DNA of 64,000 bases, from assembly GCF_009931435.1 (NCBI RefSeq), contig NZ_CP043414.1. One strand, given 5' to 3'. This document shows, in pieces, positions 1 to 3,000 of the stretch; the first letter of the stretch is position 1; the number at the start of each line of letters is the position of its first letter. A program made the position numbers. This DNA comes from Escherichia coli. GTDB taxonomy: Bacteria > Pseudomonadota > Gammaproteobacteria > Enterobacterales > Enterobacteriaceae.

Positions 1-3000
1 AATGTGATTTCTTTTGATTTCAACTTATTATAGGAGGTCTCTATAAGATGTTTGTTTCTGGAGAATTTAACATTTACAACCTTTTTGAGTCCTTTTACTA
101 ACACTATGTTGTCGTTTTCTAACACAATGTGAATATTATCTGTGGCTAAATAGTAAATATAAAGTGAGATATTGTGACGTTTTAGCTCAGAATAAAATAA
201 TTCACAGTTTAAATCTTTACGTACTTGATCGAATATTTCTTTAAAAATGGCAGCCTGAGCCATTGGTAAACCTTCCATGTGATACGATGGCGCGTAGTTT
301 GCATTATCGTGTTTATTGTTTCAATCTGGTCTGACCTCTTTGTGTTTTGTTGATGATTTATGTCAAATATTAAGCCTGTTTTTAATGAATAGTGTTGATT
401 GCGTAACAAAATTGAGCCTTGCTGGCATCCAGGAGGGATATGCAACCGACAGATGTATGTAAGGTCGATGTACTCAAACTTTCATACTTTTCCTCTTTTA
501 TGCAGTAAGATTTGAAGTAATATTTTAACCGCTAGATGACGAGCAAACGCATGGAGCGACAAAATGAATAAAGAACAATCTGCTGATGAACTCTCGTTGG
601 ATCTGATTCGTGTAAAAAATATGCTTAATAGCACCATTTCTATGAGTTACCCGGATGTTGTAATTGCATGTATAGAACATCAGGTGTCTCTGGAAGCATT
701 CAGGGCAATTGAGGCAGCGTTGGTGAAGCACGATAAGAATTCGAAGGATTATTCCCTGGTGGTTGACTGAGCACCATAACTGCTAATCATTCAAACTATT
801 TCACCTGTGACAGAGTCAATATCGCATTCTGTCACTGTCAGGCTAATACAGAGCTGCAATTCAACTACTGCAATGTCCTCGTAATTAGGTGAATTTACAA
901 TATCGTCCTGTTCGGATGCCGGCTGCATTGCTGAAGATGAGGCATTTATGGTTCGCATATTTTCCCCTCATGCTCGTCAGTCCTGTGCGTAGGAAGAAAC
1001 AGGACACTCACACTAATTTGTGTGGGCATGCTGTGATGTCCTTCTGAATTATTCCTATGCCATTATGTAAAGCGCTGTATCAGATGCTCGTCACGGCTGT
1101 CAGGCTGTCAGGCTGTCGGGTCCTCCCGGTGGGGGCCCCTGCCACGGGGCGGGAGCGTCGCGGAAAAAGGCTAGTTTTTGCATTTCCATGGCGGCGGCAG
1201 CATGTTTGGTAATTTATTGATAATTAAAAGTTATTTCTCTTTTCACCTGTACAATATTTTTTTCTCTCTGTCATTAGACCAGTTTGCAATTAATTGAAAT
1301 ATATAAATAAACATGATTTTCACCTGCCAGATGGAGTTGCTTATGTCAAATGTGAGCGGGATCGGTGATGCTTATTACTGGAGTGTTTTTAAAATCGCTG
1401 AGGCCTTTGGGCTTCACCGGGACACAGTAAAAAAACGGCTCCTCGCGGCCAACACTCCTGTGGCTGCGACTGTCAGGGGGAACCCCGTTTACGCCCTGCA
1501 GCATGTCGGGCCAGCCCTGTTTAGTGTGAAGCATGAGGCAGCAGACTCTGTTCATGATCCATCCCGTATGGAGCCGAAAGAGAGAAAGGACTGGTACCAG
1601 TCTGAAAATGAAAGGATCAAGCTGGAAAAGGAGCAGCGAAAACTCATCCCCGTTGATGAAGTAGTCATCGTCTATTCGTCCATGAGAAAGGCTGTCGTCC
1701 AGGTTCTGGAGACAATTCCGGATGTTCTTGAACGCGATTGCGCCCTGACTCCTCAGGCCGTCGGCGTTGTACAGCAGGCCATTGATGACCTGCGATACAC
1801 TCTTCAGGAAAAATCCTACGAGGCTTGTGCTGCTGAATTAATTCCTGATGAGGAAGGAGAGAGTCTCTAGGAGGAATAATGGGTTTTTCATCAGCCCGAA
1901 ATTTGGGAAGGGACATATCGGCAGGATTTTCCCCACCACGTCGCATGCCGATTTCGGAGGCTGTTAAAAAATTCATGCGTGTTCCCAAGGGGGCTGGTAA
2001 CTCGGTGCCATGGGATCCTGAACTGACACCCTACATCATTGAGCCCATGAACTGCCTGGCATCGCGTGAATACGATGCGGTGATTTTTGTTGGTCCTGCG
2101 CGAACAGGGAAGACCATTGGTCTGATCGATGGATGGATTGTCTATACCATCGTTTGCGATCCTTCGGACATGCTCGTTGTGCAGATGACCGAAGATAAGG
2201 CCCGCGAGCATTCTAAAAAGCGCCTCGACAGAACGTTCAGAAGCAGTGCGTCGGTAAAGAAAAGAATGAGTCCACGTCGTAACGACAATAATGTCCATGA
2301 TAAGACGTTCAGGGATGGCTCGTTCCTTAAAATTGGTTGGCCCTCGGTCAACATTATGTCGTCGTCGGATTACCGGTTTGTCGCCTTAACCGATTACGAC
2401 CGTTTTCCGGAGAATATCGACAGCGAGGGTGATGGTTTCTCCCTGGCCTCAAAACGTACCACCACATTTATGTCCGCCGGGATGACTCTGGTGGAGAGCT
2501 CGCCGGGACGTGACATCTGCGACAGCAAATGGCGACGTAAGTCGCCTCATGAAGCGCCACCGACGACTGGTATTCTTTCCCTTTACAATCGTGGTGACCG
2601 CCGCCGCTGGTACTGGTCATGTCCGCACTGCGGTGAATATTTTCAGCCAGCCATGGATGCCATGACCGGCTACCGTAATGAACCGGATCCCTTTAAAGCC
2701 AGTGAGGCGGCGTATCTACTTTGCCCGCACTGCAGCGGCATTATCACTGCGGAGAAAAAGCGTGAGCTCAATAGTGCAGGAGTCTGGTTGCGTGAAGGTC
2801 AGGTCATTGATCGTAACGGCAACGTTTCCGGTGAACCGCGCCGCTCCCGTATCGCCAGTTTCTGGATGTAGGGTACATTTCTTACCTGTTTTTATGTTCT
2901 GGTGTCGTTTTGTAGTCTTTTCAATGAGTTGTGATTTTTGGTGTTTCCTCTCTTTACTTGATAATGAGTTAGTTTATCGCTTGTTATCGACTTGAAAGGA

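Follow-up and report, generated by a model that had tools for sequence, protein, structure and literature searches.

The first kilobase of the window (the whole stretch of Escherichia coli DNA analysed here, 64,000 nt) differs sharply in composition from the phage structural genes that follow it, and this raises the question of what it encodes. The initial annotation proposed that it was AT-rich cargo lying upstream of cos in a lambdoid prophage, with two small unannotated genes, both on the minus strand: a partial ORF running off the left edge and a 55-aa ORF with a strong Shine-Dalgarno sequence. Our comparisons show that the first kilobase is an already known accessory module at an ordinary lambda-like right end, and that its gene content is other than was proposed.

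Composition and context of the region upstream of cos

The GC content is 0.376 for positions 1–1000, with values of 0.293 for 1–263, 0.380 for 264–563, and 0.406 for 564–770, compared with 0.498 across the entire window and 0.52 in the terminase genes (1313–2871). The first 1 kb ranks within the bottom 1.9% of 1-kb windows for GC content; for the first 500 bp, the corresponding figure is 0.5%. The region is, as had been claimed, AT-rich compared to the structural genes (38% GC, against 50% for the whole window). Positions 1–1146 are 99.7% identical to phage Tritos, and the region is matched by 2786 E. coli records, where the annotation reads DUF1398 and hypothetical protein; it was found in 2783 of 5426 complete E. 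coli genomes, about half of them. We compared the annotated contexts of the region in MB06234, Tritos, lambda, and the K-12 prophages DLP12 and Qin. In loci with 99.8% identity, genes cspI, ymcF, ynfN, gnsB, and the DUF1398 gene are all situated between Rz and cos, which corroborates the proposed location of the accessory region, flanked by the lysis cassette and cos, in a lambdoid prophage.

The linear genome of Tritos ends at window position 1146 and restarts at 1147, and this junction could be aligned with cosQ and cosN from lambda. The presence of a cosN equivalent and of a cosQ-like motif (Table 1) indicates that the initial annotation was right in placing the first kilobase upstream of cos. 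Further downstream, a 10.7-kb helper-embedded PICI satellite, of a published class, interrupts the gene for the terminase large subunit (positions 2869–13561).

The identity of the genes, their patterns of conservation, the identity of the operators, and the position of cos were established directly. From these observations, positions 1–1146 very probably correspond to the right end, immediately before cos, of a prophage of the Qin/Tritos type, with two real genes (the DUF1398 gene and a ybcW-type gene) and a 55-aa ORF that occurs by chance.

Table 1. Position and supporting evidence of the features around the right end of the prophage (window coordinates).
Feature	Position	Strand	Basis or remarks
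DUF1398 gene, YbcV/YdfO/lambda p78 family	1–263	-	First 87 of 136 codons; exits the left window edge
Control region shared by the divergent DUF1398 and ybcW-like genes	264–563		AT-rich, 38% GC
PdhR box ATCTGGTCTGACCTCTT	324–340	+	Exact match to the gSELEX site between ybcV and ybcW
FNR box TGTTGATGATTTATGTCAAATATT	348–371	+	Exact match to the K-12 site beneath the FNR ChIP-chip peak at ybcW
YbcW/lambda p79 family gene, 68 aa	564–770	+	Shine-Dalgarno GGAG; same orientation as the late operon
Non-coding DNA separating ybcW from cos	771–1116		Homology boundaries
55-aa ORF, very probably a chance frame	791–958	-	ATG at 958–956; Shine-Dalgarno GAGGGG, 5-nt spacer
cosQ-like motif CGGGTCCT	1117–1124	+	Aligned to the lambda cosQ region ACGGGTCCTTTCCGG
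cosN equivalent GGGCGGGAGCGT (lambda: GGGCGGCGACCT)	1147–1158	+	Tritos termini and alignment to the lambda ends
DUF1441-type small terminase subunit	1313–1870	+	Pfam PF07278, E 1.9e-44; a small terminase subunit in the Tritos annotation

The partial ORF at the window edge is a known DUF1398 gene

The partial minus-strand ORF at the left edge is indeed a real gene, but it cannot be considered unannotated. Pfam model PF07166 (DUF1398) matched the minus strand of positions 3–263 with an E value of 4.5e-23 (82 bits, for a cut-off of 22), spanning model positions 1–80 of 119, and the remainder of the gene lies beyond the window; its start codon (263–261) is preceded by the sequence GGAAGG. Identical loci in public records carry all 136 codons without interruption, and the full-length protein deduced from a locus with 99.8% identity (L001) aligned end to end with YdfO in PDB entry 2HH8 (2hh8_A; E 1.1e-66) and matched phrog_413 (E 5e-83). 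The DUF1398 annotation is present in thousands of RefSeq/PGAP genomes of E. coli, as well as in phage records, including that of Tritos. The gene is variably present among close relatives: it is not annotated in loci L004–L006 and is missing from some viral loci. An AlphaFold model built on a shallow alignment had a pLDDT of 48, too low for a fold search; additionally, a search of NCBIfam with the three peptides from the region (DUF1398, YbcW-type, and 55-aa) retrieved no family, and a PADLOC scan yielded no credible match to defence systems. In the same scan, 80 residues of the DUF1398 protein matched REase_II (E 2.8e-4), which we judged to be noise.

Relatives of the DUF1398 protein have been reported to be linked to stress tolerance. 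STM1808, described as a zinc protein of the DUF1398 type, is reported to be required for nitric-oxide resistance. Overexpression of YdfO increased resistance to oxidative stress according to a second-hand statement (PMC4077768); the claim was not found in the available main text of the article cited for it (Wang et al., 2010). In lambda, lambdap78 was scored as non-essential (PMC10695390).

Conserved operators travel with the DUF1398 gene

Upstream of the DUF1398 gene, positions 264–563 align with the intergenic regions ybcV–ybcW of DLP12 and p78–p79 of lambda. The PdhR and FNR boxes found here are identical, base for base, to those of DLP12 ybcV/ybcW; the FNR box is also present in lambda, whose PdhR box has one mismatch. 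In 76 of 80 viral loci, both boxes accompany the DUF1398 gene; they are missing from L004–L006, which have no annotated DUF1398 gene. These operators travel with the gene. In K-12, the PdhR site between ybcV and ybcW was identified by gSELEX, and deletion of pdhR reduced the mRNA of ybcV and ybcW about 10-fold (PMC7660256); likewise, there is an FNR ChIP-chip peak at ybcW in K-12 (PMC1802558). The phage T4 protein MotB, which alters H-NS-dependent repression, raised expression of DLP12 ybcV and ybcW more than 1000-fold (PMC7827196), in an assay done with BL21(DE3), where the lambda DE3 copy is near-identical to DLP12 and reads may therefore be ambiguous. A scan for sigma-70 promoters in positions 264–563 found no strong promoter, and a scan for terminators in positions 1–1400 found none; for both kinds of signal, nothing exceeded the expectation from shuffled sequences.

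The second gene is of the ybcW/lambda p79 type and lies on the plus strand

The pair of small genes proposed initially overlooked the ybcW-type gene. Its 68-aa product matched phrog_657 over residues 1–68 of 68 (E 5.2e-47) and is 91% identical both to K-12 YbcW and to lambda p79. The 68-codon frame is kept, with its start and stop codons, in 8 homologs, and the core YPDVV.ACI...VS.E.F.AIEA.L is retained in homologs with 54% and 41% identity. An AlphaFold model of the protein adopted a three-helix bundle, with a pLDDT of 78. Both homologue searches were dominated by near-identical sequences. Many of the matches are ENA contigs of around 3.5 kb that resemble error-laden lambda control DNA.

As an alternative to a lysogenic-conversion cargo, the ybcW/lambda p79 gene could close the late operon and play a role related to cos or to DNA packaging, or to the interplay between helper and satellite, which we regard as unlikely. 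The gene shares the strand of the late operon, stays beside cos in L004–L006, where the DUF1398 gene and the control region are missing, and occurs with Nu1-type as well as with DUF1441-type terminases. Additionally, the homolog with 41% identity belongs to a compact PICI-like element whose other genes include capsid E and D, and lies there some 45 bp upstream of a cosQ-like sequence, CGGGTCCTTTC, and of a Nu1 gene; the homolog with 54% identity resides on an AlpA/Rep satellite-like contig. Conversely, no ybcW homolog was found in the helper-embedded PICI inside the window, which does contain copies of cos; the YbcW family is narrow, being limited to enterobacterial phages, with 165 representatives that are mostly sequencing-error variants; the predicted fold is a generic three-helix bundle; and the linkage of ybcW to cos could be plain hitch-hiking. 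Knock-down of lambdap79 by CRISPRi lowered plating by around 10^4-fold, and the gene was scored as essential, although the same work indicates that it was non-essential in earlier literature and that CRISPRi is polar in lambda (PMC10695390). This score is compatible with polarity, and also with a lytic function in place of a cargo role. More specifically, YbcW/lambda p79 might provide a cos-linked late function, for instance as a modulator of terminase/cos recognition or of the competition between helper and satellite, to which we assign a slightly lower likelihood still. If true, this function would explain the persistence of the gene directly upstream of cos with two unrelated types of small terminase, its survival at 41–54% identity in compact PICI-like satellites, and the plating loss upon knock-down of lambdap79. 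We retain the ybcW-type gene as one of the two real genes of a known accessory right end.

The spacer preceding cos is conserved as DNA

The spacer that separates the ybcW-type gene from cos contains a mosaic junction at around 917–941, with a lambda-like module extending to 916 and a cos-proximal module, similar to mEp460 and Tritos, starting at 942. Spacer DNA is 87–92% conserved across lineages without any conserved frame, as would occur if it were a cis-acting element, be it an extended packaging-termination signal, a terminase-binding repeat, or a small RNA. Such an element could include, around positions 808–838, a hairpin whose 8-bp stem (GTGACAGA/TCTGTCAC) is conserved, and the 10-mer CTGTCAGGCT, which is found at 835–844 and as a tandem pair at 1097–1114, directly before cosQ; also, a machine-learning study flagged two intergenic lambda mutations located 3′ of lambdap79 as having an effect on infection efficiency (bioRxiv 10.1101/2024.01.08.574707). 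However, the hairpin stem is invariant, hence there is no covariation, and the repeat near cos is missing in lambda. An Rfam scan of positions 1–1400, with E values up to 1, retrieved no match, and the folding energies of positions 765–960 did not differ from those of shuffled sequences for both strands (z -1.45 and -1.06). The conservation of the spacer does not exceed that of the neighbouring genes and, therefore, recent common descent is enough to explain it. A cis-acting element is improbable.

The 55-aa ORF is probably a chance reading frame

The 55-aa minus-strand ORF exists as initially described, with an ATG and a GAGGGG motif, but its interpretation as a gene did not withstand comparison, because its frame is not conserved and its length is within that expected by chance. 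When positions 264–1146 were shuffled, ORFs of 55 aa or longer numbered 1.45 on average and were present in 79% of the shuffled versions. The ORF is unbroken in all the examined copies with at least 99% identity and disrupted in every examined copy with 98.8% DNA identity or less: by a 1-nt deletion in E166 (98.8%), by loss of the start codon (ATG to ACG) together with two 1-nt deletions in F344 and HannyBb (91% lineage), and by a stop at codon 2 in PhiR30_1 and ETEC4088 (87% lineage); the frame is also broken in lambda and DLP12. The DNA across the ORF is 87–99% conserved while the frame is destroyed from 98.8% identity downward, and just about 20 of 80 viral loci contain the ORF in full length. 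Additionally, the start codon and the Shine-Dalgarno motif sit in a different mosaic module than the body of the ORF, and a promoter scan upstream of it found the nearest promoter-like match on the opposite strand.

Homology searches with the 55-aa peptide did find matches, so that strictly it does not lack homologs, but these were near-identical E. coli copies. The peptide matched phrog_4035 in full length (E 1e-41), and some automatic annotations of E. coli list the exact sequence as a hypothetical protein, with 95 members in its 90% cluster. Beyond the near-identical group, tblastn matches were split into two frame-shifted pieces, and no family was found in Pfam, NCBIfam, or PADLOC. The ORF is annotated in none of the inspected records, including PGAP genomes and Tritos. 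That the ORF is a genuine small cargo gene, previously unannotated, is very improbable, a reading that the comparative data have already largely refuted, and we conclude from the sequence comparisons that it is very probably a chance reading frame and not a gene.

The proposal of two unannotated small genes did not, then, hold up: one is a member of the ybcV/ydfO/lambda p78 family, and the other an ORF that is not conserved and is probably due to chance. With such an ORF and with known right-end genes, the finding in the first kilobase is ordinary; the region has the textbook architecture of a lambdoid genome and matters little, and the DUF1398 and YbcW-type genes have long been annotated. What is useful here is corrective: the 55-aa ORF that had been flagged should no longer be treated as a gene, and the genuine second gene lies on the opposite, plus strand.

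Proposed organization and expression of the accessory module

We propose that the DUF1398 gene, antisense to the phage late operon, would form with its AT-rich upstream region a self-contained accessory, or moron, unit. As regards regulation in the source strain, we infer that in the lysogen the gene could be turned on by the host regulators PdhR and FNR, and otherwise be kept at low expression by H-NS-type silencing acting on AT-rich DNA. The ybcW-type gene might be expressed from the shared control region and also from the Q-antiterminated late transcript, which would read through the gene and on past cos into the terminase genes. Both proteins have been reported as dispensable for lambda growth. 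The 55-aa frame, in turn, probably arose at the join of the lambda-like and cos-proximal modules.

Comparison with known systems

The right end of lambda contains lambdap78 (47042–47575, minus strand), lambdap79 (47738–47944, plus strand), and cos, with the same gene order and orientation as in the window. Positions 47190–48090 of lambda are 89% identical to window positions 1–916, and the FNR box, cosQ, and cosN are conserved. Past position 916, however, the window contains a different cos-proximal module, with a DUF1441-type small terminase vs. Nu1 in lambda; the neighbours to the left also differ, with gnsB and cold-shock genes in loci of the window type and bor in lambda. Judging from a 1-nt indel in the alignment, the annotation of lambda p78 as a 177-aa protein is probably over-extended.

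Among K-12 prophages, YbcV from DLP12 is 89% identical to the DUF1398 protein from the window, and YdfO from Qin around 77%. DLP12 carries ylcI (DUF3950) and the Nu1-type gene nohD between ybcW and a remnant terminase, whereas the window lacks both; unlike the window, Qin of K-12 does not contain ybcW. Tritos (OV696610) is also 99.4% identical over positions 1147–2868, but its gene for the terminase large subunit is uninterrupted, while the copy in the window contains the 10.7-kb insertion.

The locus also resembles the moron or accessory loci described for prophages (Juhala et al., 2000; Cumby et al., 2012; both as cited in PMC7067206). As with morons, it shows a deviant base composition (29–41% GC vs. 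approximately 50–52%), is antisense to the lytic genes, lies between functional modules, is variably present among relatives, and is dispensable for plaque formation. Conversely, the ybcW-like gene has the same orientation as the late operon, an arrangement unusual for morons. Morons possess their own promoter and terminator and are expressed in the lysogen; scans of this locus found no consensus promoter and no flanking terminator, but the locus does contain operators identical to the experimentally bound sites of DLP12.

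Two protein-coding genes in an AT-rich lambdoid right end

The region preceding the terminase genes is an already known and very common lambdoid right-end module. The initial annotation had described its first kilobase as AT-rich and lying upstream of cos, and both points hold: GC is 29% (1–263), 38% (264–563), 41% (564–770) and 44% (771–1000) against 49.8% for the whole window, placing this kilobase in the lowest 2% among all 1-kb windows, so its AT-richness is real, and GC rises from 31% in the first 400 bases to ~50% by the terminase genes. As to cos, the genome record of Escherichia phage Tritos ends at 1146 and begins at 1147, and the junction ...GTCGGGTCCTCCCGGTGGGGGCCCCTGCCACG/GGGCGGGAGCGTCGCGG aligned with ...ACGGGTCCTTTCCGGTGATCCGACAGGTTACG/GGGCGGCGACCTCGCGG of lambda. 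Positions 1–1320 match the Tritos right end at 99.7% identity, and lambda 47190–48090 is 89% identical to the corresponding stretch.

Features of the right end and of the element within the terminase gene
Feature	Position	Strand	Remarks
DUF1398 gene, partial frame	1–263	−	visible in the sequence at the left edge
Divergent intergenic region (300 bp)	264–563		between the DUF1398 and ybcW-like genes; two operator sequences inside
PdhR box ATCTGGTCTGACCTCTT	324–340		base-for-base identical to the gSELEX PdhR site in the ybcV-ybcW intergenic region (PMC7660256)
FNR box TGTTGATGATTTATGTCAAATATT	348–371		same site as beneath the FNR ChIP-chip peak at ybcW (PMC1802558)
68-aa ybcW-like ORF	564–770	+	mechanical ORF list
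55-aa ORF	791–958	−	mechanical ORF list
10.7-kb co-oriented element	2869–13561		between the terminase parts; junctions ~2859–2868 and 13562–13571
Tyrosine integrase	3033–4271		in the 10.7-kb element
ClpP-protease/major-capsid fusion	10672–12588		in the 10.7-kb element
DUF1441 small terminase, the element's own	12837–13322		in the 10.7-kb element

Two unannotated small genes had been proposed here. The first, a partial minus-strand ORF, is real, yet it has long been annotated as DUF1398: its 87 codons match the Pfam family with 82 bits (cut-off 22), and the 136-aa protein of an identical locus aligned end to end with the YdfO NMR structure (PDB 2HH8, E 1e-66). The 136-aa form corresponds to K-12 YbcV, YdfO and the PDB construct, whereas lambda p78 is annotated with 177 aa; its 41-aa N-terminal extension spans a 1-nt indel that separates the window from K-12 and lambda directly upstream of the ATG, and thus lacks frame conservation, leaving the 136-aa form as the gene. 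In RefSeq, lambdap78 (NC_001416 47042–47575; 2853–3386 in our lambda locus) appears as a 177-aa 'head protein' with an upstream GTG start, a record that is probably over-extended, the extension being out of frame in the window, and misnamed.

The true second gene, the plus-strand ybcW-like ORF, had been overlooked. It matches phrog_657 across its full length (E 5e-47), its product shares 91% identity with YbcW and with lambda p79, and eight diverged loci keep exactly 68 codons with start and stop unchanged. An exhaustive profile search showed the family to be narrow (165 representatives, mostly error-ridden copies); the core YPDVV.ACI..VS.E.F.AIEA.L is kept in two genuine distant members (54% and 41% identity), which speaks for a real protein. 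The 54% homologue is carried by an AlpA/Rep satellite-like contig, and the 41% homologue by a compact PICI-like element (~2565–4805 in two loci; Logan SRR12826347; GCA_014959845.1) with the order DUF927 primase, PerC, capsid E, decoration D, YbcW-like, cosQ-like CGGGTCCTTTC ~45 bp past the YbcW-like stop, and Nu1. ENA contigs of ~3.5 kb account for hundreds of database 'homologues' of YbcW and DUF1398, with frameshift-like variants and odd lengths; these resemble error-rich reads from a control amplicon of the lambda right end, and they inflate family sizes and worsen alignments.

The 55-aa minus-strand ORF is spurious

The other proposed gene exists as an ORF with an ATG and a GAGGGG motif, and matches phrog_4035, and some automatic annotations of E. 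coli label it "hypothetical protein"; it is absent from the annotation of the inspected PGAP genomes and of the Tritos record. Comparison with DNA homologous to 760–1010 showed a 1-nt deletion in the frame in E. coli E166 (98.8% identity), an ACG in place of the ATG, together with two separate 1-nt deletions, in F344 and phage HannyBb (~91%), and a stop at codon 2 followed by more stops in PhiR30_1 and ETEC4088 (~87%), while start and frame are both absent from lambda and DLP12 (87–88%, up to 916 only). Lambda-type homology stops at 916 and a different module, common to mEp460-type phages, begins at 942; the start and Shine-Dalgarno motif lie in one mosaic module and the body in another. The full-length ORF occurs in only ~20 of 80 IMG/VR loci; beyond the near-identical group, tblastn matches fall in two frame-shifted pieces, and nothing is annotated on that strand beneath them in the inspected phage records. 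An ORF this long appeared in 79% of shuffles, within chance expectation. With its frame lost in homologous DNA and its length expected by chance, we rejected it as a gene.

Proposed host regulation of the DUF1398 unit

In 76 of 80 viral loci the two boxes occur together with the DUF1398 gene, and loci in which none is annotated lack the boxes but retain ybcW; K-12 ydfO has a PdhR-like box with one mismatch at equal upstream distance. This co-occurrence indicates that the operators are part of the DUF1398 unit. Strain E166, the same whose 1-nt deletion breaks the 55-aa ORF, has a natural ~100-bp DUF1398-ybcW intergenic deletion (~805–1004 of its locus) that removes both boxes and leaves both genes intact.

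Deletion of pdhR lowers ybcV and ybcW mRNA ~10-fold each (PMC7660256). T4 MotB alters H-NS-dependent repression, and its overexpression raises DLP12 ybcV and ybcW more than 1000-fold (PMC7827196); silencing of the AT-rich right end by H-NS fits these data, although reads cannot be assigned unambiguously in the BL21(DE3) background used. The DUF1398 gene and its operators would thus form a host-regulated, H-NS-silenced accessory unit, and ybcW would be transcribed from the shared control region, plus late read-through.

Lambdap78 is non-essential; lambdap79 was non-essential in older literature but scored as essential in a CRISPRi study whose authors document polarity themselves (PMC10695390). 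Ionic liquid induces ydfO, with a second-hand statement that it aids oxidative-stress resistance (PMC4077768). A minority reading ties ybcW functionally to cos, which it adjoins with either terminase type; it is also kept in PICI-like satellites, where a cosQ-like motif and a Nu1 gene follow directly. The 10-mer CTGTCAGGCT occurs downstream of ybcW (835–844) and in tandem (1097–1106/1105–1114) directly before the window's cosQ-like motif, whereas lambda lacks it near cos. The start of the DUF1441 small terminase is closely preceded by a near-perfect 16-bp palindrome, TTGCAATTAATTGAAA (1284–1299); in DLP12 and Qin the corresponding position, upstream of nohB and nohA, has a mapped FNR site (PMC1802558).

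Comparison with known prophages and satellites

The gene for the gpA-type large terminase subunit lies in two separate parts, ATPase (1879–2871) and nuclease (13569–14681), whereas Tritos has it uninterrupted, the junction overlapping by 10 bp. The intervening element, which also holds Bro-N and a RepA/AAA_25 helicase, fits the class of helper-embedded PICIs, published as targeting prophage late genes, gene A included (PMC10111431). Within it are two copies of the helper cos region, 10111–10314 (89% identity over 204 bp) and 12651–12684 (100% over 34 bp), with the motif GCCACGGGGCGGGAGCG(G/T)CGCGG; these copies are consistent with a hijack of helper cos packaging.

For the right end itself, 2786 complete E. 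coli records match, the top ones 99.8% identical and labelled "DUF1398 family protein" and "hypothetical protein", in a Qin-like order: Q, cspF/B, essD, ydfR, rrrQ, rzpQ, cspI, ymcF, ynfN, gnsB, DUF1398 (−), 68-aa hypothetical (+), DUF1441 small terminase and gpA-type large terminase. Tritos and lambda have the same pair as the window, YbcV/p78 (−) with YbcW/p79 (+), and the order in K-12 DLP12 is ybcV-ybcW-ylcI-nohD.
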